A DNA stretch of 49,343 bases from Stellaceae bacterium (lineage in GTDB: Bacteria; Pseudomonadota; Alphaproteobacteria; ATCC43930; CGMCC-115725): the NCBI GenBank assembly GCA_035632515.1, contig DASQGR010000149.1:1-49343 (forward strand), read 5' to 3'. Position numbers and translations under genes: made by a program. Under the pieces are notes generated by a model. That model had not been told where the DNA came from and searched no databases. It worked only from the letters and a program-made list of their open reading frames with translations. Position 1 is the first letter of the stretch, and every line of letters starts with the position of its first letter. Shown here one piece after another: positions 20,729-49,343 of the stretch.

Positions 20729-20775
20729 TTCGCCATCTCCTGTCGCATTGGCCTCGATCTCGCCGCCGATAGCCG

Positions 20776-21557: not shown

Positions 21558-21568
21558 CATCGCATTAT

Positions 21569-21640: not shown

Positions 21641-21712
21641 CCGGCGACCGTCGCCCTTGGAAATTTCCGCCGACCCACCAGATCAGGCGCAGCTCGTGCG
21701 AGGGAGGTTTGC

Positions 21713-31772: not shown

Positions 31773-34223
31773 TTGGCCGCAGATTTCAAGGTTGTCATCA
31801 TTGGCTCCGGACCGGCCGGCTTGAGCGCCGCCGTTCACGCCGCCAAGGGCGGCGTGTCCCATGTGCTGCTCGAGCGTACCGACCACATCAACAACACCAT
31901 CTTCCGCTATCAAAAGCGCAAGCACGTGATGGCGACCCCCGAGGTCCTGCCGCTGCGCAGCGACCTCGAGTTCGAGGAGGAGTCGCGCGAGGAGTTGATC
32001 GACAGTTGGACCGGGGGTTCCACCGCAGCGGGGATCAACATCCGGTTCAACACCGAGGTGTCGGCGATCAAGGGCGAGAAGGGCAATTTCCAGGTTCAGC
32101 TCGTTGGCGGCGGGGTGATCTCCGCCGAATACGTCGTCCTCGCCATCGGGGTGCAGGGCAATTTCAACCGGTTGAGGGTTCCCGGCGCCGATCTGCCTTT
32201 CGTCCAGTACCAGCTCGACGATCCCGACGAATACCGGGAGGAGAAGATCGCGGTCATCGGGGTCGGCGATGCCGGCATCGAGAACGCGCTGGCGCTGGCG
32301 ACCAACAACGAAGTCTACGTGCTCAACCAGAAGGACGACTTCCCGCGGGCCAAGGCCGGCAATCGCGCGCTGATCATGGCCGCGGTTGCCAAGAACCCGG
32401 ACGAGGCGGGCTCGATCAACCACGTCGTCAACGTCGAGACGCAGGAAATCGTCGCCGGCCCGCCGGGCCAGCCCGGCGAACTGGTGCTGCACCGCGCCGA
32501 CGGCGCAACGGTGCGCGTCGCGTGCAACCGGGTCATCGCGCGCATCGGCGCACAGCCGCCGCGCCGCTTTCTCGAAGATTGCGGCATCGTCTTCACCAGC
32601 GCCGACCGCAACGCCATCCCGGAGGTGTCGGAGACCTACGAATCAGGGGTCAAGGGACTCTATATAATAGGGGCGCTGGCCGGGTACCCGCTGATCAAGC
32701 ATTGCCTCAACCAGGGCTACGAGGTCATCGAGTACATCCTCGGCAACGAGCTCCCGCCGGCCGACGAGCCGCTGATCCAGGCAAAGCTGACCCCCGAGAA
32801 GATACGTGTCCTCGATCCGAGCAAGGACGCGATGACCGGCGCCGAGCTGATCGGCTACATCAGAGCACGGGCGCCGATGTTTTCGGGCCTCAAGCCGATC
32901 CAGATCCGCGAATTCCTGATCCATGCGGAGCTGCATCGGCTGCAGCCCGGCGACGTCGTCTTCCGCCGGGGCGAGTCGACCAATTCGCTGTACACCATCC
33001 TCGACGGTCAGGTCGGCATCCAGATCGACCCGACCAATCCGGCGGAGATGGTTCATCTCGGACCCGGCCAGTTCTTTGGCGAGATGGGGCTGATCTCCGG
33101 CCGCAAGCGCACCGCCACGGTCGTCGCCGCCCAGCCGAGCCTGTTGCTCGAAGTCGACCGCAACACGATGATCCGGCTGGAGCGTTCGGAAGCATCGATC
33201 AAGCAGGCCATCGATTCGGCCGCCGTGATTCGCCAGATCAAGACGTTCCTGGCCCCGCAGGTCGAAGACAGCCTGCTCGCCGAGGTGGTGGCGACCTCCA
33301 AGATCGTCGAATTCAAGCCCGACCAGAAACTGATCGAAGAGGATGCCGAGGACGATGCGGTCTATCTGATTCGCAAGGGCTCGGTGACGGTGTCGATGCG
33401 GGTCGGCGGCAAGGATGTCGTGCTCGCCTATGTCCCGGCCGGCAATTATGTCGGCGAAATGGCGATGATCACCCGCCGCCGCCGTGCCGCAACGGTCACC
33501 GCCGCCAGCGTTACCGAGGCGATCCGCATCGACAGCAGCGCCTTTCGCAAGCTGCTCGACCGCGATCCCGACCTGCGTCGACGGGTCGAGGACAAGCTCG
33601 AGCAGCGGCTGGCCGAGCGCAACCAGATGCAGCAGAACGCCGAGACCGGCGATCTGATCAAATTCCTGGTGCGCGAGGGGCTGGGGGAGGCGACCAACGT
33701 CCTGCTGATCGACGAATCGCTCTGCGTGCGCTGCGACAATTGCGAGAAGGCCTGCGCCGAGACCCATCACGGCGTCAGCCGGCTCAACCGCGAGGCCGGG
33801 CCCACCTTTGCGATGGTGCACGTGCCGACCTCGTGCCGGCATTGCGAAGACCCGCATTGCATGACCGATTGTCCGCCGGACGCGATCCACCGCGCGCCGA
33901 ACGGCGAGGTGTTTATCAACGACCAATGCATCGGCTGCGAGAATTGTAAGAACAACTGTCCCTACGGCGTCATCCAGATGGCGGCGGTGCCGGAAGAAAA
34001 GCCCGGCCTGCTGAGCTGGCTGCTGTTCGGCTGGGGCGCCGGCCCGGGCGAGGACAAATCGCCGGAGGGCATGGCCAAGCGCACCGGCGGCAAGCATGCC
34101 GTCAAATGCGATATGTGCAAGGATCTGGCCGGACCGGCCTGCGTGCGCGCCTGCCCGACCGGCGCGGCGATTCGCGTCGATCCGGCCGGGTTCATCGACG
34201 TCATGCGCCAGGCCCAGGCATGA
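31773..34223 (+). CDS. fusion protein: TrxR-type FAD/NAD(P)H oxidoreductase + two cNMP-binding domains + four-cluster [4Fe-4S] ferredoxin domain
   Basis: 816 aa with a TTG start.
- **aa 4-320:** KVVIIGSGPAGLSAA and KIAVIGVGDAGIE dinucleotide folds, with no redox CxxC.
- **aa ~365-480 and ~495-605:** FGEMGLISGRKRTATV and VGEMAMITRRRRAATV cNMP signatures.
- **aa 651-794:** four Cys motifs, CVRCDNCEKAC, CRHCEDPHCMTDCP, CIGCENCKNNCP and CDMCKDLAGPACVRACP. Confidence 0.85.
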   Translation: MAADFKVVIIGSGPAGLSAAVHAAKGGVSHVLLERTDHINNTIFRYQKRKHVMATPEVLPLRSDLEFEEESREELIDSWTGGSTAAGINIRFNTEVSAIKGEKGNFQVQLVGGGVISAEYVVLAIGVQGNFNRLRVPGADLPFVQYQLDDPDEYREEKIAVIGVGDAGIENALALATNNEVYVLNQKDDFPRAKAGNRALIMAAVAKNPDEAGSINHVVNVETQEIVAGPPGQPGELVLHRADGATVRVACNRVIARIGAQPPRRFLEDCGIVFTSADRNAIPEVSETYESGVKGLYIIGALAGYPLIKHCLNQGYEVIEYILGNELPPADEPLIQAKLTPEKIRVLDPSKDAMTGAELIGYIRARAPMFSGLKPIQIREFLIHAELHRLQPGDVVFRRGESTNSLYTILDGQVGIQIDPTNPAEMVHLGPGQFFGEMGLISGRKRTATVVAAQPSLLLEVDRNTMIRLERSEASIKQAIDSAAVIRQIKTFLAPQVEDSLLAEVVATSKIVEFKPDQKLIEEDAEDDAVYLIRKGSVTVSMRVGGKDVVLAYVPAGNYVGEMAMITRRRRAATVTAASVTEAIRIDSSAFRKLLDRDPDLRRRVEDKLEQRLAERNQMQQNAETGDLIKFLVREGLGEATNVLLIDESLCVRCDNCEKACAETHHGVSRLNREAGPTFAMVHVPTSCRHCEDPHCMTDCPPDAIHRAPNGEVFINDQCIGCENCKNNCPYGVIQMAAVPEEKPGLLSWLLFGWGAGPGEDKSPEGMAKRTGGKHAVKCDMCKDLAGPACVRACPTGAAIRVDPAGFIDVMRQAQA

Positions 34224-35155
34224 GCGTCAGCGAACAGGCGGCCGCTCGGCCCAACGCCGCTTCCGCCGCCGCGCCGCGAACGGACCGGCACACCTCCTTC
34301 CTCGCCTATGAAGGGTATCGCTATCTGAAATGGGCGCTCGCCGCGGTGGTGGCGGCGATCCTGCTTTATTGGCTGGTGCCGCCCTACGGCGCGCGCTACG
34401 GCGGCGGCTGGGCCGGGTACACGCTGGGGACGGTGGGCGCCCTGCTGATCCTGTGGCTGACCTGGTTCGGCTATCGCAAGCGCACCTATGCCTCGAGCCT
34501 GGCCGGCGCGGCGGATGTCGGCGGCAATCCCGTCGAGGATCCGAGCCGGCTGGCGCGGCGACTGTCGGCGCATGTCTACCTCGGCAGCGCGCTGCTGGTC
34601 ATCGCGACGCTGCACACCGCGTTCAATTTTCATTGGAACATCCACACCCTGGCCTATGCACTGATGTGCATCGTCATTTTCAGCGGCATGTTCGGGGTTG
34701 TCGCCTATGCCCGCTATCCGCGGCGGATGACCGAGAATCGCGAAAACCTCACCCTGGGGCAGATGCTCACCCGTGTCGGCAGCATTGACGGCGAGTTGCG
34801 CCGCGGCGCGATGCAGCTCGACGATGCGACGGTCGCCATGATCGAGAATACGGTCGAGACGACCGCGATCGGGGGCTCGATGTGGCGGCAATTGTCGGGG
34901 CGCTATCCCCGGTGCACCACCGCCGCGGCGATCGCCCGCATGGATGCGCGCGCCGAGGCGGTCCCGCCCGAGCTGCAGGATGCCTGGCGCCAGACCCGGC
35001 TGAGGCTGGAGGAAAAGGCCGCCCTTCTGACGCGCCTGCGCCGCGACATCCGCTTCAAGGCGATGATGGAGGTGTGGCTCTTCCTGCATGTTCCGCTGAC
35101 CTTCGCCCTGATTGCCGCGCTTGTCGCCCACATCGTCGCGATCTTTTTCCTTTAG
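34220..35155 (+). CDS. 5-TM membrane protein with two H-x13-H pairs (candidate di-haem b-type transmembrane electron carrier)
   Basis: ATG 34220 overlaps the upstream stop (ATGA). TM3 is HVYLGSALLVIATLH (His codons at 34571 and 34613). TM5 is HVPLTFALIAALVAH (His codons at 35087 and 35129). An Arg-rich loop of about 95 aa separates TM4 and TM5. Confidence 0.7.
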   Translation: MSVSEQAAARPNAASAAAPRTDRHTSFLAYEGYRYLKWALAAVVAAILLYWLVPPYGARYGGGWAGYTLGTVGALLILWLTWFGYRKRTYASSLAGAADVGGNPVEDPSRLARRLSAHVYLGSALLVIATLHTAFNFHWNIHTLAYALMCIVIFSGMFGVVAYARYPRRMTENRENLTLGQMLTRVGSIDGELRRGAMQLDDATVAMIENTVETTAIGGSMWRQLSGRYPRCTTAAAIARMDARAEAVPPELQDAWRQTRLRLEEKAALLTRLRRDIRFKAMMEVWLFLHVPLTFALIAALVAHIVAIFFL

Positions 35156-35225: not shown

Positions 35226-36986
35226 ATGGAGGTTGAGTTCACCTTTCTCACCCAGCGCGGCACCGCGGTGATGCGCCGGTCTCAGCGAGCCAGCGCCGAC
35301 AGCGTGCGGCTGGGTCGCGGCACCGACAACGAGGTGCCGCTGGGCGATATTCGCGTCGGGCTGCGGGTGGCGCAGCTCGTGCGGCGTCCCGACGGGATCG
35401 CGATCGAGAAACTCGGGGCGATGCCGCTGCAGGTAAACGGCCAGTCGGTCGACAATGCGATGCTGCATGTCGGCGACGAGATTCGGCTCGGCCCCTACCG
35501 GATCGAGGTCACGGCACCGCCCGAGGGCTGCGACGGCGCGATCCAAATCGAACTGGCGGAGCCGCTGGCCTCGGCGACCGACCCGGTGCGGGCGAGCTCC
35601 CGAATCGGCCTGGAGCACGCCGGCTTCAGCAAGCGCATCGCCTCGTGGACCGGCGTCTTGGTGCTGGCGGTTATCTGCCTGGCGGTGCCGCTCATCGTCT
35701 TTACCAGCGGCGCGTTGACGCCGTGGCACAAGGACACGCCGGCACCGCATGCGACGACCCTGGTCGGGCTGTCGTGGAATACCGGCGAATTCTCGAATTC
35801 GCATCGATTTTTCGCCAAGAATTGCGCGACCTGCCATGAGGGCAAGTTCTCGCGCGTCGCCGACACGGCATGCCTTGCCTGCCACGCGGCGGTCGGCAGC
35901 CATGTCGAGCACGGCGTCAAGCTCGGCTCGGCGGGCGAGCAGCTGGCGGAGTCCCGCTGTATCGATTGCCATACCGAGCACCGCGGCGTGCGCGGCTCGG
36001 TGATCCGCACTGCCGCGCTCTGTCTCGACTGCCATCGCGGGCTCGACAAGACCGCTCCGGAGGCCGGGGTAAAGGCGGTCGGCGGCTATCCGGCCGGCCA
36101 CCCCCAGTTCCGCGCAACGCTTGTCGCCGATGCCGCAAAAAAGCAGAACGTGCGGGTCGAGCTCGGCAGCAAGCCGGCGCCGGCCGATCATCCGGGGATC
36201 AAATTCTCGCACGCGGCCCATCTCGTGCCGGGCGGCTTCCCGAAGCTCCACTACAAGGAGATGGCCTGCGCCGATTGCCATGTCCCGGAGCCGGGCGGCC
36301 AAAGCTTTCAGCCGATCACGTTCAAAGGCCAGTGCCAGAGCTGCCACAACGACAATCTGACATTCGACAGCGTCGCGTTGCCGTGGTCCGGCGCCAAGGT
36401 ACCGCATGGCGATGACAGCGCGGTCGTCGCCGGGGTGGTCAACTTCTATGCCGCGCAGGCAGTGCAGAACGGCGCCGCCGCGCCTGCCGCAACGCCCGCG
36501 GTCGAGCGGCGCGGCGCCGGCATGCCGACTTCGCTGGCAAGCGCGGCGCCGGCCAGCGTCCAGGCGTGGATACGCGACAAATCGCAGGCCGCGCTCCGGG
36601 TGATTTTCGACGAGAAGCGCGGCTGCGCCTATTGCCACTACGGCACCGGGGCGGACGGTGCCATCGACACCGGCAAGGTGATGGCGAGCCTGGCGGCAGA
36701 CAAGGAACCGCTGAAGGTGATCGCCGCGGTCGAGATGCGCACCCGGTTTCTGCCCAACGCGGTCTTCGACCATTCCCAGCACCGCGGCGTGAAGTGCGAG
36801 GAATGCCATGCCAGCCGCCAGTCCCAGGCAAGCGCCGACGTGCTGATCCCGGGCATCGAGACCTGCAAGACTTGCCACGGCGCCGAGGACGTCCACCTGC
36901 AGGTCAAGTCGACCTGCATTACCTGCCACGTCTTTCACCGCAGCGAGTTGGGGTTGATGCACATGACCGCGGAGGCGCCAAAATGA
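35226..36986 (+). CDS. FHA-like domain / single TM / decahaem c-type cytochrome
   Basis: 586 aa. aa ~1-98 are FHA-like (VRLGRGTDNEVPLGD...LQVNGQSV...VGDEIRLGPYRIEV). The TM helix spans aa 139-160 (WTGVLVLAVICLAVPLIVF). There are ten CxxCH motifs, with first Cys at aa 200, 216, 245, 266, 348, 370, 467, 524, 547 and 564. Confidence 0.85.
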   Translation: MEVEFTFLTQRGTAVMRRSQRASADSVRLGRGTDNEVPLGDIRVGLRVAQLVRRPDGIAIEKLGAMPLQVNGQSVDNAMLHVGDEIRLGPYRIEVTAPPEGCDGAIQIELAEPLASATDPVRASSRIGLEHAGFSKRIASWTGVLVLAVICLAVPLIVFTSGALTPWHKDTPAPHATTLVGLSWNTGEFSNSHRFFAKNCATCHEGKFSRVADTACLACHAAVGSHVEHGVKLGSAGEQLAESRCIDCHTEHRGVRGSVIRTAALCLDCHRGLDKTAPEAGVKAVGGYPAGHPQFRATLVADAAKKQNVRVELGSKPAPADHPGIKFSHAAHLVPGGFPKLHYKEMACADCHVPEPGGQSFQPITFKGQCQSCHNDNLTFDSVALPWSGAKVPHGDDSAVVAGVVNFYAAQAVQNGAAAPAATPAVERRGAGMPTSLASAAPASVQAWIRDKSQAALRVIFDEKRGCAYCHYGTGADGAIDTGKVMASLAADKEPLKVIAAVEMRTRFLPNAVFDHSQHRGVKCEECHASRQSQASADVLIPGIETCKTCHGAEDVHLQVKSTCITCHVFHRSELGLMHMTAEAPK

Positions 36987-38968
36987 CCGATTCGCGCCGA
37001 CCGAGATTTCTCCATCATCCGGCGTTTCGTGCCGCCATGGCGGTGCTTTCCGTATGGTGCATGGCGCCGGGCGGCTGTGGCGGCGGCAGCAGCGGCGCCA
37101 ACAACAGCAACCCGAACGCGATCACCCCGGCGGCGCCGGTTGCCGACACCAGCCCCAACCTGACCGAGAGCGACGTCAACACGATCGTGCTGCAGGCGAT
37201 CAACGAGGCGACCGCCCGCGGCCGGCCGGCGACCATTGCCGTGGTCGATCGGGTCGGCAATGTGCTGGCGGTGACCCAGATGGCAGGCGCGCCGGTCTTG
37301 GCGACGGTCACCTCGGGGCGCGGCGTGACGACCGGGCTCGAGACGGTTCAGGTGCCGACGACGCTCGCGGCGCTCGCCAAGGCCTATACCGGCGCCTACC
37401 TGTCGTCGAACGGCAACGCCTTCAGCACCCGCACTGCCAACCAGATCGTCCAAGAGCATTTCAACCCCGGCGTCCGCGGCACGCCGGGCGGGCCGCTGTT
37501 CGGGGTGCAGTTCAGCCAGCTCGCCTGCTCCGATTTCAACACCGCCGCCTCCCCCGTTGCCGGCGGCACCAATGCCGGGCCGCATCGCTCGCCGCTCGGC
37601 TTTTCCGCCGATTCCGGCGGGTTGCCGATCTACAAGAACGGCGTCCTCGCCGGCGGTATCGGGGTGATGACCAAGACCATCTATGGCGCCAACCTCAATA
37701 TTTTTGCCGTGCCGATCGATGACGACGAGGTGGTGGCTATCGCCGGAACGACTGGATACGCGGCGCCGCCGGCGATTACCGCCGACAACATCGCCGTCGG
37801 CGGCCTGACGCTGCAATATATCGACGCCTCCAGTGCCAATCTTGCCGCGCCGGTGTCGGCTGCGGGCACCTTCACGCCGCTGCCGGTGGCCGGGTACTGG
37901 GCCGGGCCCGCCGCCGGTCACACGGCGAATGCCGGGTTGATCTACGGCAGCGCGGACGGCGCTTCGGGAGTGGCTCCGGACGGCGCACTCGGCCCGGTGA
38001 TCTACCCCGGCACCACCCAGACCTCCTACGTCTTCACCGACGGCGCCGGCCATATCCTCTACCAGCCGACCGCAGGGGCGATGCCGGCAGACGGCAATGC
38101 GATCACCGCGGCGGAGGCGAAAGGGCTGACTACCGCGGCGCTCAATGTCGCCTACTCGGCCCGTGCCGCCATCCGGGTGCCGACCAACAGCTTCGCCCAG
38201 GTGACCGTCACCGTGGTCGATCTCGACGGCAATGTGCTGGCCCAGGCGCGCACCCCTGACGCACCGATCTTCGGCGCCGACGTGTCGCGGCAAAAGGCGC
38301 GCTCGGCCGTGTTCTTTTCGCGGCCCGACGCGGCAGCGAAGATCAACGCGATCACCGCTCCGGCGAGCACCGTGACCGGCACTTTTGCCGACTACATCAC
38401 CCGCTCGCAGTTGTTGATCGGCAGCGGCACCTTCTCCAACAGTTTGGCTTGGGCGGCGGTGTCGATCGGCGATGTGGCGCGGCCGTTTTATCCGGACGGC
38501 ATCGACGGCAACCAGCCGGGATCGCTGAGCCTGCCCTTCGACCGATGGAGCGTGTTTTCGACCGGCCTGCAGGTCGACCTGGTGACGAGCGATATCGTTG
38601 CCGGCACGACCGGGGCGCTGGCGCCCGCGACTGGCTGCGGCAACGCCAACGGCCGAGGCTTGCCGCCGACCGCGAGCGGCAAGACCCAGCTCGCCAACGG
38701 ACTGCAGATCTTCTCCGGGTCGGTGCCGATCTACCGCGGCAATGTCCTGGTCGGCGCCGTCGGCGTCTCCGGTGACGGCATCCAGCAGGACAGCCTGATC
38801 TCGTTCCTCGGCCTGGACCGCTTCGCCGCGCAGGACGGCGCAAACCCCATCGCCAACGCGCCCGCGGCAATCCGTGTCGACCTCCTCAAGCCGGCCGGCG
38901 TCAACCTGCGCTACACCAACTGTCCGGCGGCCCCCTTCGTCGACTCCACCGTGCAAAACCCGTGCTGA
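36983..38968 (+). CDS. probable lipoprotein with two GlcG/HbpS-like (DUF336) domains
   Basis: ATG 36983 overlaps the upstream stop (ATGA). The signal is followed by Cys and a Gly/Ser linker (MAPGGCGGGSSG). There are two DUF336-like units, ending in GGLPIYKNGVLAGGIGV and SGSVPIYRGNVLVGAVGVSGDGIQQD. Confidence 0.7.
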   Translation: MTDSRRPRFLHHPAFRAAMAVLSVWCMAPGGCGGGSSGANNSNPNAITPAAPVADTSPNLTESDVNTIVLQAINEATARGRPATIAVVDRVGNVLAVTQMAGAPVLATVTSGRGVTTGLETVQVPTTLAALAKAYTGAYLSSNGNAFSTRTANQIVQEHFNPGVRGTPGGPLFGVQFSQLACSDFNTAASPVAGGTNAGPHRSPLGFSADSGGLPIYKNGVLAGGIGVMTKTIYGANLNIFAVPIDDDEVVAIAGTTGYAAPPAITADNIAVGGLTLQYIDASSANLAAPVSAAGTFTPLPVAGYWAGPAAGHTANAGLIYGSADGASGVAPDGALGPVIYPGTTQTSYVFTDGAGHILYQPTAGAMPADGNAITAAEAKGLTTAALNVAYSARAAIRVPTNSFAQVTVTVVDLDGNVLAQARTPDAPIFGADVSRQKARSAVFFSRPDAAAKINAITAPASTVTGTFADYITRSQLLIGSGTFSNSLAWAAVSIGDVARPFYPDGIDGNQPGSLSLPFDRWSVFSTGLQVDLVTSDIVAGTTGALAPATGCGNANGRGLPPTASGKTQLANGLQIFSGSVPIYRGNVLVGAVGVSGDGIQQDSLISFLGLDRFAAQDGANPIANAPAAIRVDLLKPAGVNLRYTNCPAAPFVDSTVQNPC

Positions 38969-41037
38969 GCGTGCCCCGGCGTATCGACCGATCGCGGCGC
39001 GAGCGGCGACTGGGCCGCAGCGCGCTCGCGTTCATGGCCGCGATGACGGCGCTGACCGGCGCGGCCACGCCGCCCCACGCCTCGGTCGACATCGGCGAGC
39101 TGCGCCGCGACCGGCGCATGGCCGACGAGCTCTACTCGGCGACGACCGGCGACGCCGCCGCCTTCGAGAAAGCGCTAAAGACCCCGGTCCTGCGCAGCGA
39201 GCTCGAACGAACCCTCAACCGTCAGCTCTCCGACGAGACGCTCCAGGCGATGGCCTCGCACGCCCGTGCCGAGGCCGATTACTGGGCCTCCTATCGCCGC
39301 GGCATCGACATGGCGATCGGCGCCGAGGGCCCGTTGATCATGGGCCGCCGGGCGCCCGGCCGGGCCCCGCCGAGCTCGGAGGCCGAGCCCATCGTCAATC
39401 CGGCGGCGTTGCCGCCGCCCGAGCCGTTCGAGCGGGGCGGCTATGTCCCGGTGCAGGATCGCTGGCGCATTCTCGACGCGCTCGGCCGCCGTGAGAACCT
39501 GCTCGATCCCTACAACACCAACACGCTGAAGGCGGATAAGCCGATCTTCGGCGAGGACTGGTTCGTCAACGTCGCGGCGATCGTCGATATTCTCTACGAG
39601 CCGGCGCGGGTGCCGCTGGGGGTCGGCGCGCAATACATCGCGCGGCCGCTCGAAAACAATACATTCGGCCGCTACGGCCGCACCATGCTCAACCAGACCG
39701 ATATTCTCAGCGTCTCGTTGATCAAGGGCGACACCGCGTACAAGCCGCCCGATTTGGAGTTCCGCCTGACCCCGGCGTTCAATTTCAACCATACCGATGT
39801 CGGCGAAATCGGCGTCCTCAACATCGATCCGGCCTACGGGCAAACGCGCAACGACAATTTCATCGGCCTGCAGGAAGGGTTCATCGACTATCACTTCCGC
39901 AACGTCTCCGAGTATTACGATTTCGATTCGGTCCGCGTCGGCATCCAGCCGTTCAACGCCGATTTCCGCGGCTTTTTGTTTCAGGACAACCAGCTCGGCG
40001 TGCGCTTGTTCGGCGATCGCGACGCCAATCGCTGGCAGTACAACCTCGCCTATTTCCGCCGGCTCGAAAAAGACACCAATAGCGGCCTCAACGATATCGG
40101 CCAGGCAGTGCGGCAAGACGGCGTCTTTATCGCCAATTTGTTCCGCCAGGATTTCCCGGTGCACGGGTTCACCTCGCAGATTGCCTTTCTGCGCAACGAC
40201 AACCACGAGGGCGGCGATTTTCACTTCGACAAGAACGGGTTCCTCGTTCGCCCGTCGCAGATCGGCGACAATCGTGGCTACAACTATGACGCCAATTATC
40301 TCGGCTTCAACGGCGACGGCCATTTCGGCCGCGTCAACCTGACGACCTCGGCCTACTATCTGTTCGGCCATCTGAGCCACAATCAGTTTGGCGCGCCGGG
40401 CAACAAGGGCTCTGACATCAGCGCTTTCTTCGTTGCCGCCGAGCCGTCGATCGATTTCGACTGGGCGCGGTTCCGGTTGTCCGGCCTCTACGCCAGCGGC
40501 GCCCGGCATCCGCAAAGCGGTACGGTCGGCGGGTTCGATGCAGTGTTCGAGAACCCGCAATTCGCCGGTGCCGACTCGAGCTTCTGGATCCGCCAGTCGA
40601 TCCCGCTCATCGGCGGCGGCGGCGTGGCGCTCAACACCCCGAACGGCGTGCTCGCCGACCTGCGCTCGTCGAAGGGCGAGGGCCAGTCGAACTTCCTCAA
40701 TCCGGGGATCATGCTCGCCGGTATCGGCGGCGATTTCGACATTCTGCCCGAGCTGCGTTTGTCGACCAATTTCAACTATCTGCGCTTCGACACTACCGCC
40801 CCGCTCGAATTCCTGCGCCACCAGGCGAACATTCCCAACTCGATCGGCTGGGACCTGTCGGCGGCGCTGACCTACCGGCCGCTATTCACCCAGAATATCG
40901 TCTTCCGGCTCTCCGGCGCGGTGTTGCTGCCCGGCGAAGGCACCAAGGCGCTGTTCAATACGCCGGGCGGCCTCGGCCTCTTCGGCAATGACGGTCTGCT
41001 CTACTCGGTTCTGGCCAACGTGATCGTGAACTATTGA
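38962..41037 (+). CDS. large outer-membrane beta-barrel-like protein with a helical N-terminal extension
   Basis: 691 aa. GTG 38962 overlaps the upstream stop by 7 nt. It has a signal-like N-terminus, a helical segment of about 100 aa, then long runs of alternating-hydrophobicity strands rich in Y/F/N/G/D (NRWQYNLAYFRRLEKD, ISAFFVAAEPSIDFDWARFRLSGLYASG). The C-terminus ...VLANVIVNY ends in an aromatic residue. No family was recognised. Confidence 0.6.
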   Translation: MLSVPRRIDRSRRERRLGRSALAFMAAMTALTGAATPPHASVDIGELRRDRRMADELYSATTGDAAAFEKALKTPVLRSELERTLNRQLSDETLQAMASHARAEADYWASYRRGIDMAIGAEGPLIMGRRAPGRAPPSSEAEPIVNPAALPPPEPFERGGYVPVQDRWRILDALGRRENLLDPYNTNTLKADKPIFGEDWFVNVAAIVDILYEPARVPLGVGAQYIARPLENNTFGRYGRTMLNQTDILSVSLIKGDTAYKPPDLEFRLTPAFNFNHTDVGEIGVLNIDPAYGQTRNDNFIGLQEGFIDYHFRNVSEYYDFDSVRVGIQPFNADFRGFLFQDNQLGVRLFGDRDANRWQYNLAYFRRLEKDTNSGLNDIGQAVRQDGVFIANLFRQDFPVHGFTSQIAFLRNDNHEGGDFHFDKNGFLVRPSQIGDNRGYNYDANYLGFNGDGHFGRVNLTTSAYYLFGHLSHNQFGAPGNKGSDISAFFVAAEPSIDFDWARFRLSGLYASGARHPQSGTVGGFDAVFENPQFAGADSSFWIRQSIPLIGGGGVALNTPNGVLADLRSSKGEGQSNFLNPGIMLAGIGGDFDILPELRLSTNFNYLRFDTTAPLEFLRHQANIPNSIGWDLSAALTYRPLFTQNIVFRLSGAVLLPGEGTKALFNTPGGLGLFGNDGLLYSVLANVIVNY

Positions 41038-41041
41038 GACA

Positions 41042-44000
41042 ATGTCGCTGCGCGCTCTGATAGTAGCTGGATTGATGGCATGGGCCGGCGTCTTCGTCGC
41101 GCCGTCGCTTGCCCGCGCCGAGGAATCGCCGGCCGCCCATGAGGAGAGCGCGCCGCCGGCCCCACAAAAGCAGTCGGAGGCTGCGGCGCGGCTCAAGAGC
41201 GCCGGGTGCATGAGCTGCCATACGGCGACCGACTCGGTGACGATGCATACCAGCCCCGGGGTCGTCCTCGGCTGCGCCGATTGCCATGGCGGCAACGCTG
41301 CGGTGTTTGCGCAAGGTGCGGCGCCGGGAACCCCGGAATACCGCAAAGCGCTCGACGCCGCTCATGTCCACCCGCTTCATCCCGAAGCCTGGAATTACCC
41401 GTCGAGCGTCAAGCCGCCGCGCACCTACACGCTGCTCAACAAGGAATCGCCGGCGTTCATCCGCTTTATGAACCCGAGCGACTACCGGGTGGCGCGCGAG
41501 GCCTGCGGCGCCTGCCATCTGAAGGAGATCGCCGCCAACGAGCGCAGCCCGATGGCGACGACCGCGATGTTCTGGGCGGCCGGCGCGTACAATAACGGCA
41601 TCCTGCCGTTCAAGCACTCGATCGTCGGCGAGGCCTATACCCGGGAGGGCGAGCCGGCGACCCTGCTCGATCCCAATCCCCCCAGCCCCGAGGCGAGCCG
41701 CCTGCACGGGATCGAGCCGAAATTCGTGCCGCTGCCGACCTGGGAGGTGTTTCCGACCGGCGACGTCTTCCGCGTCTTTGAGCGCGGCGGCCGCACCATC
41801 AACACGCAATTCCCCGAGATCGGCAATCCGAACTCGACCGGCGAGCTACAGAAGCTCGAGGAGCCGGGGCGGCCCGATCTGAAGCAATCGAACCGCGGCC
41901 CCGCCACCGGGCTGCGGGTGTCGATCCCGATCCTCAACATCACCAAGACCCGGCTCAACGACCCGACCACCTGGTTCCTTGGCACCAACGACAATCCCGG
42001 CGACTATCGCAACTCAGGCTGTGCCGCGTGCCATGTCGTCTACGCCAACGACCGCGACGTGCAGGAGGGCGGGCCCTACGCCGCCTACGGCAATCGCGGC
42101 ACCGGCGCCGGTATCGACCCGACCATCCGCAAGGGCGAGTCGGGGCACCCGATCGTGCATCGCATGACCACGGCGATCCCGACCAGCCAGTGCATGATCT
42201 GCCACATGCATCAGCCGAACCTGTTCCTCAACAGCATGCTCGGCTACACGATGTGGGATTACGAGACCGGCGCGCCGCAGATGTGGCCGAAGCGGCAGAA
42301 ATACCCGACCGACACCGAGATGCGCGCCGCACTTGAGCGCAACCCCGAGGGGGCGGTGGTGCGCGGCAGATGGGCCGACCCGGAATTCTCGGCCAACGTC
42401 AACGAGCTCAACCCCAAGCTCAATGACACCCAGTTCGCCGACTATCACGGCCACGGCTGGAACTTCCGCGCGATCTTCAAGCGCGACCGCAAAGGCAACC
42501 TGCTCGACGACGACAACAACATCATCCCGGCCAGCGACCCGCAAAAATTCAAGAAGGCGGTGCACCTCGATTCGATCCACGTCGATTTTGGGATGCAATG
42601 CGTCGACTGCCATTTCTCGCAGGACAACCACGGCACCGGCCATCTCCACGGCGAGATCCAGGGTGCGATCGAGATCACCTGCGCCGATTGCCACGGCACT
42701 GCGACCAAGCTGCCGGATCTGAAGACCCACGGACCGGCGGCGCCGCCGCGGGGCACCGACATGTCGGCCTTGCGCACTGCCGATGGCCGCGCCCGTTTCG
42801 AATGGCGTGGCGACAAGCTGTTCCAGCGCTCGGCGGTCTATCCGGGGCTCGAGTGGCAGGTCACCCTGGTCAAGGACACGGTCACCCCGGGCAACCCGCA
42901 CTACAATCCGCGGGCGGCCCGCGCCAAGCTGATGTCGAAGGGCAACTCGATGGCCTGGGGGCCGGGGGTGCCGACAAATCAGCTCGCGCACGGCAGCGAC
43001 GAGATGGCGTGCTACACCTGCCATTTGTCGTGGACGACGAGCTGCGCCGGCTGCCACCTGCCGATCGAGGCCAATCAGCACACCGAACGACACCGCTATG
43101 AAGGCGAGACCACCCGCAATTTCGCCACCTACAATCCGCAAGTGGCGCGCGAGGACATGTTCCAGCTTGGCCGCCACAGCACGGTGAAGAACAACATCAT
43201 CGCCCCGATCGCGTCGCGCTCGGCGCTGGTGCTGTCGTCGACCAACATCAACCGCGAGCACATCTATGTGCAGCAGCCGCCGGTGTCGTCGTCCGGGTTC
43301 TCGGCCCAGGCGTTCTCGCCTCACTACCCGCATACCGAGCGGCGCACCGAGACCAAGACCTGCACCGACTGCCACATCTCGGCGCAGAACGACAACAACG
43401 CGATCATGGCCCAGCTGCTGCTGCTCGGGACCAATTTCGTCAATTTTGTCGGGCTCAATTCCTGGGTCGGCGAGGAACACGACATCGAGGCGGTGCGTGT
43501 CACCGAATGGGACGAGCCGCAGGCGGTGATCGGCAGCTACCTGCACCGCTATGCCTACCCGGACTACTACAAGAAGCACCTCGCCGAAGGCCGCAAACTG
43601 GAGGAGGCCCACGGTCATGCCTCCAACGACGCCAAATGTCTGCAGCTGCGCGGCGAATACCTCTTCGTCTCCGAGGGCTCCAACGGGACGCGGGCCTATG
43701 ATGTCGCCAGCATTGCCAACAAGGGCGTTTCCGAGCGCATCATCACCGCGCCCTTCTCGGCCCTCGGCCACGACACCCATATCGCCTCGAAAAACGCGAC
43801 CTGCGTCGTGCTGCCGACCGATCAGCCGATCAACCCGCTGCGCAATGCGGGCAAGAACGAGGCACTCGATTTCAGCCAGGATTACGGCCCGGTGATGCGC
43901 GGGGCGAACGAAGAACAGGTGATGCACCCGATCTACAACTACGCCTACATCACCGATTCCGTCGAAGGGCTGATCCTGACCAATGTCAACACGCTGCAGG

Positions 44001-44821
44001 ACCAGGAGCCGCGCAACAACTTCTTCACCCGGGCGCTGACCTGGAACGAGAACGGCATCCTTAACGGAGCCCGCTACCTGACCATCGCCGGGACCAAGTT
44101 CTACGTCACCGCCGATGCCGGCATCGTCGAGCTCGACATGGACGACCCGCTGCATCCCAAGCTCGTCGCGGTGATCCCCATCCGCGATGCCCGGGCGACA
44201 GTGGTGCAATTCCGCTATCTGTTTGTCGTCGGCGCCAGCGGGCTGGAAGTCGTCGACGTCACCAACCCGGCCCGGCCGGTGGTGGTGCCGGGCGCGCGCG
44301 TGCCGCTCGCCGATGCGCGGCGCATCTTTGTCGCTCGCACCTATGCCTATATTGCCGATGGCCGCGACGGGCTGGCGATCGTCGATGTCGAGCGGCCGGA
44401 CCACCCGTTCCTCAAGATGCAGTACACCGCCGACGGCAAGATCACCGACGCGCGCGATGTGGTCGTCGCCTCGACCAATGCCTCGCTCTTTGCCTATGTC
44501 GCCGACGGGGTGAATGGGCTCAAGGTGATCCAGTTGCTCTCGCCGGTCAGCCAGCCCAATTTCTACGGCTTTTCGCCGGAGCCGAAACCGGAGCTGATCT
44601 CGTGGTACCCGACCGCCTCGCCGGCGCTGTCGTTGTCGCGCGGGCTCGAGCGCGACCGCGCGGTCGACGAGACCGGACACCAGATCGCGGTATTTGGCCG
44701 CATCGGCTCGCGCCCGTTCACCCTCAAGGAAATGCAGCAGCTCTATATGGGCCCTGACGGCAAGCCGTTCACTGTCACCGATCAGGTGCAAAAGCAGGAC
44801 TTCGTGCCGGCGCGGCATTAA
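41042..44821 (+). CDS. secreted decahaem c-type cytochrome with a C-terminal LVIVD-repeat beta-propeller region
   Basis: 1259 aa with Sec signal MSLRALIVAGLMAWAGVFVAPSLARA. Ten widely spaced CxxCH motifs have first Cys at aa 56, 78, 155, 327, 384, 520, 547, 657, 668 and 774. aa ~865-1165 (nt 43634-44536) carry LVIVD-type repeats (YLFVSEGSNGTRAYDV, YAYITDSVEGLILTNV, FYVTADAGIVELDM, YLFVVGASGLEVVDV, YAYIADGRDGLAIVDV, FAYVADGVNGLKVIQL). Confidence 0.85.
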   Translation: MSLRALIVAGLMAWAGVFVAPSLARAEESPAAHEESAPPAPQKQSEAAARLKSAGCMSCHTATDSVTMHTSPGVVLGCADCHGGNAAVFAQGAAPGTPEYRKALDAAHVHPLHPEAWNYPSSVKPPRTYTLLNKESPAFIRFMNPSDYRVAREACGACHLKEIAANERSPMATTAMFWAAGAYNNGILPFKHSIVGEAYTREGEPATLLDPNPPSPEASRLHGIEPKFVPLPTWEVFPTGDVFRVFERGGRTINTQFPEIGNPNSTGELQKLEEPGRPDLKQSNRGPATGLRVSIPILNITKTRLNDPTTWFLGTNDNPGDYRNSGCAACHVVYANDRDVQEGGPYAAYGNRGTGAGIDPTIRKGESGHPIVHRMTTAIPTSQCMICHMHQPNLFLNSMLGYTMWDYETGAPQMWPKRQKYPTDTEMRAALERNPEGAVVRGRWADPEFSANVNELNPKLNDTQFADYHGHGWNFRAIFKRDRKGNLLDDDNNIIPASDPQKFKKAVHLDSIHVDFGMQCVDCHFSQDNHGTGHLHGEIQGAIEITCADCHGTATKLPDLKTHGPAAPPRGTDMSALRTADGRARFEWRGDKLFQRSAVYPGLEWQVTLVKDTVTPGNPHYNPRAARAKLMSKGNSMAWGPGVPTNQLAHGSDEMACYTCHLSWTTSCAGCHLPIEANQHTERHRYEGETTRNFATYNPQVAREDMFQLGRHSTVKNNIIAPIASRSALVLSSTNINREHIYVQQPPVSSSGFSAQAFSPHYPHTERRTETKTCTDCHISAQNDNNAIMAQLLLLGTNFVNFVGLNSWVGEEHDIEAVRVTEWDEPQAVIGSYLHRYAYPDYYKKHLAEGRKLEEAHGHASNDAKCLQLRGEYLFVSEGSNGTRAYDVASIANKGVSERIITAPFSALGHDTHIASKNATCVVLPTDQPINPLRNAGKNEALDFSQDYGPVMRGANEEQVMHPIYNYAYITDSVEGLILTNVNTLQDQEPRNNFFTRALTWNENGILNGARYLTIAGTKFYVTADAGIVELDMDDPLHPKLVAVIPIRDARATVVQFRYLFVVGASGLEVVDVTNPARPVVVPGARVPLADARRIFVARTYAYIADGRDGLAIVDVERPDHPFLKMQYTADGKITDARDVVVASTNASLFAYVADGVNGLKVIQLLSPVSQPNFYGFSPEPKPELISWYPTASPALSLSRGLERDRAVDETGHQIAVFGRIGSRPFTLKEMQQLYMGPDGKPFTVTDQVQKQDFVPARH

Positions 44822-45572: not shown

Positions 45573-46054
45573 GGCTTCGTCTCGGGGGCGGCGGTGCGGG
45601 AGAGCTTTAGCGTCACTTCGCCCGCGGGCGATGCCAGCACCACCTGGTCCTGGGCGACGATTTTGACCGTCCAGCCGTCGAGCGTGTCGCCCTCGCCAAT
45701 TTCCATGCGCCGCGTGCCTTCCGCGACAAAGGCATGCCGCTTCGCGCCGGTGCCGACGATCCCGAGCAGGCGATAGCGGCTGTCGATCGACGGACCGGCG
45801 GGCGCGACGGAAACCCCGGGCGGCGCCTGTCGCGACGGAGCAAAAAGCGGGCGCTCGACGATCGCGGCAAGGCTGGCGAGGGGCGGCAGCGCCGCGAGCG
45901 CCGGCGGCGGTTTCGTCGTCTCCTGGGTGGCGGCGTGCCGGTTCGACGGGGTCGGCGGCACCAGCCAGGGCCAGACGGCGAGGGCGGCGAATAGCGCCGT
46001 TGCCAGGCCGAGCAGCGAAGCGGGCCGCAGTGCCGGCAATTTCGCCGCGATCAC
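45566..46054 (-). CDS. gspN: type II secretion system protein at the GspN position (PilP/GspC-HR-like C-terminal domain)
   Basis: GTG 46054 overlaps the gspM stop (GTGA). It has an N-terminal TM (LLGLATALFAALAVWPWLV) and a C-terminal region YRLLGIVGTGAKRHAFVAEG...GDTLDGWTVKIVAQDQVVLAS. The assignment rests mainly on gene order. Confidence 0.55.
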   Translation of the reverse strand: MIAAKLPALRPASLLGLATALFAALAVWPWLVPPTPSNRHAATQETTKPPPALAALPPLASLAAIVERPLFAPSRQAPPGVSVAPAGPSIDSRYRLLGIVGTGAKRHAFVAEGTRRMEIGEGDTLDGWTVKIVAQDQVVLASPAGEVTLKLSRTAAPETKPQ

Positions 46055-46602
46055 GGGGCCGGCTCCGTCTTGAAGCCGGCGATGTCGAGCTGGAAATCGA
46101 GCCGCGGCGCGGCTGCGCCCGGTGACGGTGCGGGCGACTGAACCTGCAGGTTGTCGGCGTAGAGCACCGGGCGCGCCGATTCGATTGCGTAGATCAGGCT
46201 GCGCAGGCCGGGCATGTCGCCGCTGGCGCGGATGCGGACGCCGATCCGGGTCGCACCGGGCAGCGCCTCGCTGCGCAGCATCTGCAATCCCTGCACCTGG
46301 ATACGGGCGGCGGTGGCGGCGCCTTTGACCGTTTCTTGCAGCATGGCCGCGGCCTGCGAATCGGGCATTTCGGGATAAAGCAAGCTCCGACCGGCCGCCG
46401 ACGGCAAGGTGGCGGGTGTGGGGCCGTCGGCGAGCGCCCGATAGCGGGCCAGTACCGCAGCCTTGGCGGCCAGCCGATCGTCGGCGGCATCGATCAGCCC
46501 GCGATAGGCGCCGACCGGCCCGAACCAGAACGCGACAATCAGCGCCGCCAGGATCGCGAGCGCCGCGGCTCGCCTCGCCGTGGCCCGGTCGGTCAGGCTC
46601 AC
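46051..46602 (-). CDS. gspM: type II secretion system protein M
   Basis: 183 aa with a GTG start. It has a single N-terminal TM followed by a periplasmic domain. Its position between gspL and gspN, with 4-nt overlaps on both sides, supports the call. Confidence 0.7.
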   Translation of the reverse strand: MSLTDRATARRAAALAILAALIVAFWFGPVGAYRGLIDAADDRLAAKAAVLARYRALADGPTPATLPSAAGRSLLYPEMPDSQAAAMLQETVKGAATAARIQVQGLQMLRSEALPGATRIGVRIRASGDMPGLRSLIYAIESARPVLYADNLQVQSPAPSPGAAAPRLDFQLDIAGFKTEPAP

Positions 46603-47675
46603 GGCTTTGTTTCCGCCAACGTTGCGCCGAGCTGGAAGTGCTCCAGCCCCGACGCCGGTTCACGCGTGATCGGGGTGCGAAAGACCACGCCGGCGACGTT
46701 GCCGCCTTTCTCCAGTGCCAGCGCCATGGTCGCCGCCGACGGCGACAGCCCATCCATGACCACCTCGCGGCCACTCACCGACAGCGATAGCAGGTACGAG
46801 CCGTCGGGAACGTCGCGGCTCAGCGCGTCGAGCACCGTGACGAGCGGGGGCCGGCCGGCACGCAGGCCGAGAACCGCGTCGCTGCGTTCGCTGTCGTGGC
46901 GCTGAGCCTCGCCGGCACGCAAAGCCGCCTCGGCACGCGGCTTCAGCACCGCCAGCTCATGCTCGATTCGGGTGAGCTGTGCCTGCTGCGCCAGCGGCCA
47001 GGACACCGCCGCCGCAACCGCCGCCAGCGCCGCCGCAAAACCCAGGCGGCGGGTGGCCGGCGATGCTGCGGCCCGGGCGCCGAGCACGGCAGCAGGCAGG
47101 AATAGCGGCTGCGAGTCGGCTCCCGCTAGCACTGCGATCCCCGCCGGCCGCAGCCCCGCCTCGGCGAGCACGGCGCCGATGCCGTCGACGACGTCGCGCG
47201 GCACCGCGACGATCTCGACCGCGATGGTCGCGCCGCCGCCATCGCCGCGCGGCACCAGCCGATGGTGGAAATAGACCCGCTTGGCCGGGAAGGGGAAATG
47301 CCGTGCGATCTCGAATTCGACGATGCGGTCGAGCTGGCCCTTTGCCCCCGCGGGGAAATCGACAATCTTACTCAGTGCCCGCTCGGGCGGGATCTCGACG
47401 ACAACGCCTCGCTGCTGCGCTGGCGGGATCAGGTTGCGCACTTGCGCCGGGTCGGCGGACTGCCAATCGACCTGGCCGATCGGCCGCTGGCCCTGGCGCA
47501 ACAGCCAATAGCGCTCGCCGGCCTCGATTGTCACCGTGCCGCGGCCCCGCGTTACCGCCCACCGCCGCAGGTCGTCGCCGCAGCCCCGCAACTCGCCCAG
47601 CCACCAGCCGAGCGCGCGGCCGATCCGGGCGGGGGGACGCGCGCTTTTCAGCGGGTTGTTTGCAGCAATCGTCAT
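46599..47675 (-). CDS. gspL: type II secretion system protein L
   Basis: 358 aa from ATG 47675. It has a cytoplasmic actin-like N-domain (IVEFEIARHFPFPAKRVYF), a central TM (LGFAAALAAVAAAVSWPL) and a periplasmic C-domain. It sits between gspK and gspM. Confidence 0.72.
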   Translation of the reverse strand: MTIAANNPLKSARPPARIGRALGWWLGELRGCGDDLRRWAVTRGRGTVTIEAGERYWLLRQGQRPIGQVDWQSADPAQVRNLIPPAQQRGVVVEIPPERALSKIVDFPAGAKGQLDRIVEFEIARHFPFPAKRVYFHHRLVPRGDGGGATIAVEIVAVPRDVVDGIGAVLAEAGLRPAGIAVLAGADSQPLFLPAAVLGARAAASPATRRLGFAAALAAVAAAVSWPLAQQAQLTRIEHELAVLKPRAEAALRAGEAQRHDSERSDAVLGLRAGRPPLVTVLDALSRDVPDGSYLLSLSVSGREVVMDGLSPSAATMALALEKGGNVAGVVFRTPITREPASGLEHFQLGATLAETKP

Positions 47676-47769
47676 GGGCGGTCGACGGCCTCGCAGCCGG
47701 AACGAAACGACCTTAAAGGAATTTCCGCCGATGCAAAATCGGTTCCGTGGCGCCGTTGCTTGCCGTTGC

Positions 47770-48708
47770 TTAAGGTGCCTGCCGCCGGGCGACGACCGCC
47801 TCGCCACCGCGATCGGCCTGCGGGGTTCGCCAGGCGACCACCTCGTAGGGGCGGGCGGGTCGATCGGTCAGGCGCACCTGCAGCTCGGCGCGAAAGCGCG
47901 CGCCCTCCGGGGTTTTCGCGGTGGCGGCGATGGTGAAATCGCGCCGCGGGCTTGCCATCACGAACGGCGCCGCGGCGGCCAGCCCGAGAGTGCCACCGGC
48001 GGAGACGGCGTCGTGCCAGCTCGCGCGGCGGTCGAGAAAATCGTCGACGAGGCTCGCGGTCGCGCCTGGGATTGCCATCAGCGCCAGACGCGGCGCCACC
48101 ATCGGGTCAATGGCGGAAGCACCGGTCGCCACGGTGATGCTGTCGGCGACGCGGTCGTAGAGCGAATCGTCGATGCCGGGAAGCTGCGCCAATTCCTCGA
48201 TCGCGGCAAAGCGGCGAGCGGCAGGCCGCGCGGCGCCAGCGCCCTCGGCCGGACCAGGGCAGTCGGCGCCCGTCTGGCCGCGCCAATCGAGGACATTGCA
48301 GGCGAGCAGTGCCGCCTCGTTGCGCGCTCGGCCGGCGGCGATGAACAGTCCGGTGAGCAATTCCTGCGAGGCGACGTTGAGGTCGATCTTGCCGGCCTCG
48401 TCGGAAATGGCGATGGCAATGTGGGTGCTGCCCTGCTGCCAGATCTCGGGGGCACCATCGAAATAGACCGTGCCGGCCTCCTTGCGGCGCAGCAGGCGGG
48501 CGAGGCCGAGCTGGGTTCCGGCCTCGGCCGCGAGCCGCGCCCGGCTGGCGCCGAGCGCATTGCGCGCCACCTGCAATTCGGTGCGGGTGGCGAAGGCGAC
48601 CGGTGCCAGCAGCATGAAGATCAGCGCGACGCCCCACAGCGCGAGGATCGCGACCGAGCCGCGCTCGCGGTTTCGCTCCGGCGCCGCTTCGCGCATCTCA
48701 GCCGGCAT
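47770..48708 (-). CDS. gspK: type II secretion system minor pseudopilin K
   Basis: 312 aa. RGSVAILALWGVALIFMLL, the DEAGKIDLN motif, and IEELAQLPGIDDSLYDRV (helix-hairpin-helix-like) are typical of GspK. Confidence 0.82.
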   Translation of the reverse strand: MPAEMREAAPERNRERGSVAILALWGVALIFMLLAPVAFATRTELQVARNALGASRARLAAEAGTQLGLARLLRRKEAGTVYFDGAPEIWQQGSTHIAIAISDEAGKIDLNVASQELLTGLFIAAGRARNEAALLACNVLDWRGQTGADCPGPAEGAGAARPAARRFAAIEELAQLPGIDDSLYDRVADSITVATGASAIDPMVAPRLALMAIPGATASLVDDFLDRRASWHDAVSAGGTLGLAAAAPFVMASPRRDFTIAATAKTPEGARFRAELQVRLTDRPARPYEVVAWRTPQADRGGEAVVARRQAP

Positions 48709-49270: not shown

Positions 49271-49343
49271 GGCGACGGTCCAAGCCGCAGGGTGGACAGG
49301 GCCAATTGCCGCTGACGATGGCCGTCGCGCCAGGCGACGCTGA
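49267..49343 (-). CDS. gspI: type II secretion system minor pseudopilin I (C-terminal fragment at the window edge)
   Basis: Hand-translated ...SVAWRDGHRQRQLALSTLRLGPSP-stop, whose TGA overlaps the GTG of gspJ (GTGA). The call is made from position and the short C-terminal pattern only. Confidence 0.55.
   Translation of the reverse strand, partial: SVAWRDGHRQRQLALSTLRLGPSP

Follow-up and report, generated by a model that had tools for sequence, protein, structure and literature searches.

The contig DASQGR010000149.1 of a Stellaceae bacterium (assembly GCA_035632515.1), a stretch of 49,343 nucleotides referred to here in its entirety as the window, carries at 35226..36986 on the forward strand a gene for a decahaem cytochrome c. 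The product is a bitopic inner-membrane protein in which a cytoplasmic forkhead-associated (FHA) fold is joined through one transmembrane (TM) helix to a periplasmic ten-haem domain. Judged by its residues, the FHA domain cannot be a standard reader of phosphothreonine (pThr). The gene is the third in a same-strand run of six whose junctions are very short or overlapping, and it directly follows genes for a flavo-iron-sulfur (flavo-FeS) protein and a five-helix membrane protein. From this setting we infer a transmembrane electron path from reduced nicotinamide adenine dinucleotide (phosphate), NAD(P)H, to periplasmic haems in which the FHA fold would act as a phospho-independent docking module, a proposal whose chances of being right and of being wrong we hold to be evenly balanced.

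The annotation of the window draws on open reading frame (ORF) and third-codon-position GC (GC3) calls together with Pfam. Positions 35226..36986 (+) form an uninterrupted ORF of 586 amino acids (aa) plus a stop codon, and the gene call is supported by the translation, Pfam matches and homologues. An exact-sequence look-up of the protein matched no record. Hydropathy finds a lone hydrophobic stretch at aa ~138-162. The protein divides on the forward strand into an FHA-fold domain (aa 1-112; 35226..35561), a linker modelled at low confidence (aa 113-138; 35562..35639) and delimited by model confidence, alignment and charge counts, a single TM helix (aa 139-162; 35640..35711), and the decahaem domain (aa 163-586; 35712..36983). 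No N-terminal signal peptide is found in the cytochrome, a 135-aa domain precedes the helix, and all haem motifs lie C-terminal to it. K136 and R137 are invariant on the cytoplasmic side of the helix, and three Lys/Arg residues are counted before it against one after it. Because c-type haem is attached covalently on the periplasmic side of the membrane, because the Lys/Arg residues lie on the N-terminal side and because the haem motifs follow the helix, the helix is an N-in/C-out signal anchor and the FHA domain is cytoplasmic. The sequence-only reading of this gene, which placed an FHA-like domain, one TM helix and ten CxxCH motifs at these coordinates, with the FHA part in the cytoplasm and the haems in the periplasm, is borne out by the ORF, hydropathy, Pfam, phmmer, AlphaFold2 (AF2) and Foldseek, and by the signal-peptide, charge and motif positions.

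Two sets of sequences underlie the residue and architecture counts: an alignment of 79 sequences (the window protein and 78 from genome loci) and 146 full-length representatives of clusters at 50% identity. The same architecture occurs in 146/146 representatives, and a gene-calling or assembly artefact is therefore rejected as the origin of the fusion. An alternative start at Met16 is likewise rejected, since residues 1-15 are conserved (M1, T6, L8, R11 and G12 are invariant) and form the first strand of the structural model; the N-terminus MEVEVT..RG is conserved in the family alignment.

The ten CxxCH motifs of the periplasmic domain begin at aa 200, 216, 245, 266, 348, 370, 467, 524, 547 and 564, and the C-terminal two thirds of the protein match the Pfam families Cytochrome_C7, Cytochrom_c3_2 and Paired_CXXCH. 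Ten further His residues besides those of the CxxCH motifs (193, 226, 252, 292, 329, 332, 394, 516, 519 and 571) are invariant across the 79 sequences. Ten motifs and ten distal His fit ten bis-His c-type haems with one ligand each, a predicted pattern that looks like an electron-transfer wire rather than a catalytic site. The trihaem part at the C-terminus is similar to ActA of Alternative Complex III (E 7e-7) and to the domains of GSU1996.

The assignment of the N-terminal domain to the FHA fold is secure because Pfam and phmmer, the AF2 model and Foldseek agree. Pfam FHA (PF00498) matches aa 27-89 over its full profile (1-67) at 21.6 bits against a gathering score of 20.7, a narrow margin. 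With phmmer, aa 1-137 searched against all PDB sequences find Rv1747 FHA-2 (2.4e-5), GarA (~7e-5) and OdhI (0.19). The AF2 model of aa 1-135, built from a 22-sequence alignment, has ten beta strands and a mean predicted local distance difference test (pLDDT) score of 81; most of aa 1-110 exceed 90, and the linker residues 114-135 fall below 50. Foldseek of this model against the PDB places it in the FHA fold, as the sequence-only reading had anticipated: every one of the top 50 matches is an FHA domain or an FHA-type domain from a secretion-system protein, among them Ki67, Rv1747, GarA, OdhI, Rv0020c, EmbR, kinesin-3, EssC and a type III secretion system (T3SS) protein. Target-normalised TM-scores are 0.54-0.78 for the GarA, OdhI and Rv0020c matches, and the GarA-KGD and OdhI-ODH complexes (6i2q, 8p5x and 8p5r) are among the best structural matches. 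A profile search with the N-terminal domain alone returned solely short contig-end fragments.

Alignment with GarA sets 'VSRRHA' opposite 'VGLRVA' and 'GSLNGT' opposite 'GAMP-L', in agreement with the earlier suspicion that the S-x-x-H region is replaced (VGLRVAQL). Arg81 of GarA is kept as Arg31 of the window protein, and the other residues compared are lost: Ser95 is Gly45, Arg96 is Leu46, His98 is Val48, Asn117 is Pro67 and Thr119 is Leu68. Of the pThr-binding set (Arg, Ser, His and Asn), the Arg thus stands as the sole survivor, and the Ser and His are replaced, as is the Asn. The domain also keeps G30-R31 and N71-G72. Gly30 and Arg31 are present in 77/77 genome relatives, and the representatives have Gly in 143/146 and Arg in 140/146. 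Position 45 is G, A, L, P, E, R, D or M, and never Ser, in the genome relatives (0/77); in the representatives it is Ser in 9/146 and otherwise A, P, L, G, R and others. His occupies position 48 in 29 of the 79 aligned sequences, and the equivalent of Asn117, a Pro in the window protein, is Asn in 2/79. By these counts the family as a whole is without the key Ser, and the clade of the window protein has also lost the His.

Loss of the pocket residues is accompanied by conservation of the domain. Mean identity to the window protein is 0.42 in the FHA domain and 0.41 in the haem domain. No less conserved than the haem domain and found in 146/146 representatives, the FHA domain is under selection. 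Close relatives show almost no variation at the apical-loop residues T33, E36, D41 and R43. A reasonable reading is that the N-terminal domain presents a conserved binding face with altered chemistry and not a pThr pocket. The loss of Ser, His and Asn favours the caveat of the sequence-only reading, a degenerate docking module rather than a pThr binder.

The two genes upstream encode plausible redox partners. The flavo-FeS protein (31773..34223, +; 816 aa, cytoplasmic), identified through Pfam, Cys positions and PDB matches, contains a Rossmann pair for flavin adenine dinucleotide (FAD) and NAD(P)H (GSGPAG and GVGDAG) with no CxxC, two cyclic nucleotide monophosphate (cNMP)-binding domains, and 16 Cys in four ferredoxin-type motifs. 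In the PDB, its N-terminal part is related to YpdA/Bdr, its middle part to PKA-R/PKG and its C-terminal part to HycB/ArrB.

The five-helix inner-membrane protein (34220..35155, +; 311 aa) is described from its alignment, invariant His, and helices and topology. H118 and H132 in helix 3, H290 and H304 in helix 5, and H142 are invariant in 62/62 distinct homologues from divergent loci. Each His pair (H-x13-H) is spaced 14 residues apart, and the positive-inside rule orients both helices from the cytoplasm towards the periplasm; because they run the same way, H118 lines up in depth with H290, and H132 with H304. Such a His pattern is that of two b haems stacked across the membrane, as in cytochrome b, FdnI and NOX. 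In the five-helix family, 20/22 members match the prokaryotic cytochrome b561 model (PF01292) weakly, with a best E of 7e-7. The protein is probably a dihaem cytochrome b, its haem binding being suggested by the motif. A cytoplasmic helical domain at aa 164-283 is modelled with pLDDT 85-95, and Thr171 in a cytoplasmic loop is invariant. The start and stop codons overlap as ATGA at the flavo-FeS/five-helix junction (34220-34223) and again at the junction of the cytochrome with the HbpS-like gene that follows it (36983-36986), and the 691-aa ORF next downstream overlaps the HbpS-like gene by 7 bases; these overlaps therefore indicate translational coupling along the operon.

In the proposed mechanism the three core proteins would form one complex that moves electrons across the cytoplasmic membrane, passing them from NAD(P)H to FAD, four [4Fe-4S] clusters, two b haems and ten c haems. 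Electrons would then reach an exchangeable outer module, made up in the window of the HbpS-like and putative outer-membrane proteins together with the secreted ten-haem LVIVD cytochrome, and this module, perhaps with a cytochrome exported by type II secretion, may extend the chain to the cell surface. Flow could run either way, outward for electron disposal or metal reduction, or inward for uptake. The FHA domain would serve to dock either the flavo-FeS subunit, which is soluble, or the helical cytoplasmic domain of the b subunit to the membrane wire. Docking is the most economical role for the FHA domain because that domain, carried on a flexible linker, is the only cytoplasmic part of the cytochrome. 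A precedent is given by the FHA domains of GarA and OdhI, which bind dehydrogenases directly through the canonical face with the partner unphosphorylated (PDB 6i2q and 8p5x). Control through cyclic AMP or cyclic GMP, for which the flavo-FeS protein has tandem cNMP-binding domains, is more likely than control through Ser/Thr kinases. A more specific version, in which the core would be a quinone-independent, cyclic-nucleotide-gated, NOX-like NAD(P)H:cytochrome c oxidoreductase with the degenerate FHA domain as a reversible clamp of the dehydrogenase, is offered tentatively and is on balance doubtful.

Several observations weigh against this chain or against parts of it. The five-helix protein of the window scores 16.4 bits with PF01292 against a cut-off of 30.1 and is modelled by AF2 with only moderate confidence (pLDDT 72), a Foldseek search of the PDB with this model finds nothing significant (best E 0.23), and a profile search of the protein against PDB sequences finds no match; the dihaem-b assignment rests on the His pattern and on the sub-threshold PF01292 matches. 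The canonical His is kept in 108/146 representatives of the cytochrome family, and some relatives are therefore less degenerate than the window protein. Invariant Arg31 and the conserved apical loops (T33, D41 and R43) could still bind phosphate or an acidic ligand. The docking role proposed for the FHA domain is drawn from gene order, topology and analogy. In one homologous locus (L031, 1-8000) the cytochrome lacks adjacent flavo-FeS and TM genes: the FHA-decahaem gene and downstream genes are present, with a kdp potassium-pump operon upstream, and this is the sole clear break of the core order seen. A quinone site could also exist alongside the proposed chain.

The alternative that survives best ties the module to the quinone pool, through the b-type protein or the membrane-proximal decahaem domain in the manner of CymA and NrfH, and leaves the FHA domain to regulate or stabilise only. 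A quinone-type role is the idea proposed for the nonahaem protein of Ferrigenium (bioRxiv 10.64898/2026.01.22.701106), where it is argued that one TM helix followed by a multihaem domain resembles NapC/NirT. The weak PF01292 matches of the five-helix partner and the likeness of the C-terminal trihaem part to ActA, a component of the quinol-oxidising Alternative Complex III, point the same way. Reactivity with quinones is known for PF01292-type b cytochromes such as FdnI and HydC. However, the decahaem protein scores far below the cut-offs of the NrfH model (TIGR03153; 18.7 against 134.2 bits) and the DmsE model (TIGR03508; 21.3 against 192.2 bits), and 38 residues separate the helix from the first CxxCH. 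The adjacent NAD(P)H flavoprotein with four FeS motifs would moreover be a complete cytoplasmic donor or acceptor that needs no quinone, though an extra quinone site could still be present. A quinone-linked module is accordingly judged unlikely.

Less probable still is a structural role, in which the FHA domain would drive oligomerisation or act as a scaffold within a trans-envelope machine of the YscD (T3SS), EssC (type VII secretion system, T7SS) or GltG (gliding) kind and arrange several cytochrome protomers in a ring or array, possibly with the type II secretion system (T2SS). An FHA domain, a TM helix and a periplasmic domain in series is the layout of these scaffolds, EssC, a T7SS core unit and a T3SS protein are listed by Foldseek (5fwh, 9qks and 4d9v), and T2SS genes flank the window cluster and two homologous clusters (L001 and L002). 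The matches to Yop-YscD_cpl (PF16697; 22.0 bits) and GltG (17.8 bits) are weak, however, and neither passes its cut-off (33.2 and 650), whereas GarA, OdhI and Rv1747, and not secretion scaffolds, match best in sequence and structure. It is the redox partners, not secretion genes, that stay constant across lineages, and the examined stretches of clusters with tetrahaem or pentahaem neighbours contain no T2SS genes.

The weakest alternative, and the one that the sequence-only reading led with, makes the FHA domain a working pThr reader through which a Ser/Thr kinase would switch the electron conduit on and off: the passed Pfam score, the phosphate-contacting Arg invariant in genome relatives and the invariant Thr171 of the five-helix partner speak for it, but it is very improbable given that the key Ser position carries Gly in the window protein and hardly ever Ser elsewhere in the family, that His and Asn are replaced, that no Pkinase or PP2C gene is found by Pfam among the 26 window genes (six in the operon and 20 flanking) and neither a kinase nor a phosphatase gene in the four homologous neighbourhoods with annotation, and that the operon encodes its own cNMP sensor. 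The regulatory signal of the operon is instead a cyclic nucleotide, as marked by the two cNMP-binding domains and by a CHASE2-cyclase gene at a related locus (L085); the proposed coupling to Ser/Thr kinases is not supported.

The family to which the cytochrome belongs is large. Metagenomes yield 254 full-length homologues with 47-67% identity, mostly named 'cytochrome c3 family protein' and found in metagenome-assembled genomes of Stellaceae. A scan of one genome per species finds 123 relatives, in Stellaceae, SAR116, Rhodospirillaceae, Kiloniellales, Thalassobaculaceae, Lysobacterales, Rhodanobacteraceae and others. A hidden Markov model search of 1.84 billion representatives returns 1081 clusters (50% identity) at E <= 1e-30. 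The best 146 full-length representatives, which are those counted above, have ten CxxCH motifs in 137 cases and nine in 8; the N-terminal domain is present in all 146, and the first TM helix falls at aa ~120-160 in 139/146. A nine-CxxCH member occurs in the cultured Zavarzinia sp. CC-PAN008 (WP_439816822.1, named 'FHA domain-containing protein' in RefSeq), making this organism a possible experimental system.

Gene order was followed by tblastn of the six window proteins against 83 loci (L001-L083). The order flavo-FeS, TM protein, cytochrome recurs in nearly all of them, and counted over 80 loci of Alpha- and Gammaproteobacteria it holds in almost every one. Downstream, the set of HbpS-like, 691-aa and LVIVD-cytochrome genes is present in most Stellaceae and many marine loci, and tetrahaem or pentahaem genes replace it in others (for example L081, L064 and L084) and stand beside L085 as well. 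L085 is the closest relative (67% identity) and retains the upstream synteny of the window; at its positions 11954-17189, two c554-like cytochromes and a CHASE2-adenylate/guanylate cyclase gene take the place of the window genes at 36983-44821. The three-gene core is fixed and the outer module is exchangeable, even between near relatives. At L085 the cyclase gene lies beside the gene for the cNMP-sensing flavoprotein.

In the window, the outer module begins with the HbpS-like repeat protein (36983..38968, +; 661 aa), recognised from three stretches that match Pfam HbpS-like and from its conserved position in the cluster. Its N-terminus is hydrophobic and contains a Cys. HbpS-like stretches are of the haem-binding or haem-degrading, GlcG type, and the gene lies between those for the inner-membrane cytochrome and a putative outer-membrane protein. 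The HbpS-like protein could be a periplasmic haem or redox shuttle. Next comes a 691-aa secreted protein that ends in ...VIVNY (38962..41037, +) and is delimited by its conserved cluster position; it has no Pfam match and gives no useful match in a search of PDB sequences, and its signal-like N-terminus and ...VIVNY end make it a putative outer-membrane barrel. The last gene of the run (41042..44821, +) encodes a secreted cytochrome of 1259 aa with ten CxxCH motifs and an LVIVD repeat region, identified through Pfam, a signal peptide and its conserved position. It matches ExtM weakly, and its search of PDB sequences gives no useful match. Together, the 691-aa protein and the 1259-aa cytochrome look like an undescribed porin-cytochrome pair. 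On the opposite strand, type II secretion genes (GspM-, GspL- and GspK-like, and a pseudopilin; Pfam) occupy 46051..49342. T2SS genes of this kind adjoin L001 and L002 too, and those in the window may export the large outer cytochrome.

Fusion of an FHA domain to a multihaem cytochrome is already known, and the emphasis of the sequence-only reading on its novelty was overstated, given that such proteins appear both in the literature and in RefSeq annotation. The window protein joins a recently noticed kind, and its own cluster varies in the outer module. The nonahaem protein NHC of Ferrigenium straubiae has a cytosolic FHA domain and one TM helix and neighbours five-helix and [4Fe-4S] proteins (bioRxiv 10.64898/2026.01.22.701106). 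Its authors state that the combination of FHA and multihaem domains was previously unreported, and they describe no redox motif in the five-helix protein (bioRxiv 10.64898/2026.01.22.701106). A pangenome of Gallionellaceae lists a 'Forkhead-associated protein' with 10 CXXCH motifs in 27 genomes (PMC10734462). Compared by architecture only, NHC and the window protein share the order of FHA domain, TM helix and periplasmic multihaem domain beside five-helix and [4Fe-4S] proteins. They differ in haem number, nine in NHC against ten in the window protein, a count of nine also being found in 8/146 representatives of the window family, and the five-helix protein of the window has two invariant H-x13-H pairs.

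A second relative is the ptdABCDEFG operon of the marine Alphaproteobacteria UBA11136, proposed to encode a porin-cytochrome complex and left without an assigned function (bioRxiv 10.1101/2023.11.21.568154). It comprises the pentahaem PtdA, the porin PtdB, the FAD oxidoreductase PtdC, the tetrahaem PtdD, the cNMP-binding 4Fe-4S protein PtdE, the transmembrane ferric-reductase-like PtdF and the decahaem PtdG (bioRxiv 10.1101/2023.11.21.568154). Genes for a cNMP/4Fe-4S protein, a TM protein and a ten-CxxCH protein are consecutive in both clusters, a match by architecture and not by PtdG sequence, and relatives of the window cytochrome adjoin tetrahaem or pentahaem genes. In contrast to the window protein, PtdG is termed periplasmic in that paper, with no mention of an FHA domain or a TM anchor. 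Two FeS clusters are counted there, whereas the window protein has four Cys motifs; FAD and FeS parts are fused in one window protein, whereas PtdC is separate. The window cluster also lacks PtdA, PtdB and PtdD; their place in it is taken by the HbpS-like and 691-aa proteins and the ten-haem LVIVD cytochrome.

Other known systems resemble parts of the module. GarA of Mycobacterium and OdhI of Corynebacterium match the N-terminal domain best in both sequence and structure. They are soluble, retain Ser, His and Asn, and are themselves controlled by kinase phosphorylation; the window domain, in contrast, is membrane-tethered and lacks these three residues. Hmc and Tmc of Desulfovibrio likewise form a cofactor chain across the membrane from a periplasmic multihaem cytochrome c, a membrane cytochrome b and a cytoplasmic FeS subunit. 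ActA, a multihaem cytochrome c with a TM anchor, matches the C-terminal trihaem region of the window protein, and NOX combines an NAD(P)H flavin domain with two b haems on the His pairs of two helices. Unlike the window cluster, which splits these functions over three proteins, none of Hmc/Tmc, ActA and NOX or the ferric reductases has an FHA domain or a cNMP-gated flavoprotein, and the window proteins pass no family model of these systems. CymA and NrfH (NapC/NirT) are N-terminally anchored multihaem c cytochromes, and MtrA and DmsE are ten-haem wires; they differ in having no cytoplasmic domain and in their gene context. Membership of the CymA/NrfH or MtrA groups is rejected on the TIGR03153 and TIGR03508 scores given above.

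Relative to the two preprints, the present analysis adds a dihaem His pattern in the 'motif-less' five-helix partner, four Cys motifs in the FeS domain, residues by which the FHA domain cannot be a standard pThr reader, and a core that stays constant even where close relatives differ in the outer module. If the proposed chain is right, it would let electrons travel between NAD(P)H in the cytoplasm and the periplasm or cell surface by a route that need not involve quinones, with bearing on extracellular electron transfer, iron cycling in oxygen-deficient waters and redox balancing. Under the NOX-like version, cells, those of abundant marine groups such as SAR116 included, would connect cytoplasmic NAD(P)H directly to outer modules that can be exchanged. 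The family extends from soil Stellaceae to marine SAR116, Rhodospirillaceae and Lysobacterales, and similar proteins are reported from iron oxidisers.

Elsewhere in the window, positions 18000-22000 have a GC content of 0.59-0.62, against ~0.67 in the remainder, and few convincing ORFs. A gene for a Crp-family regulator (19082-19822) and a tRNA-Thr(TGT) gene (21569-21642) lie within this low-GC stretch. The stretch could mark the edge of an island, or it could be intergenic and regulatory. When the window was scanned with Rfam and for tRNAs, this tRNA-Thr was the sole find, and it is unrelated to the cytochrome. About 20 kb upstream of the cluster, a gene on the reverse strand (12233-13774) encodes subunit I of a cytochrome bd oxidase, and the organism therefore has a high-affinity quinol oxidase.

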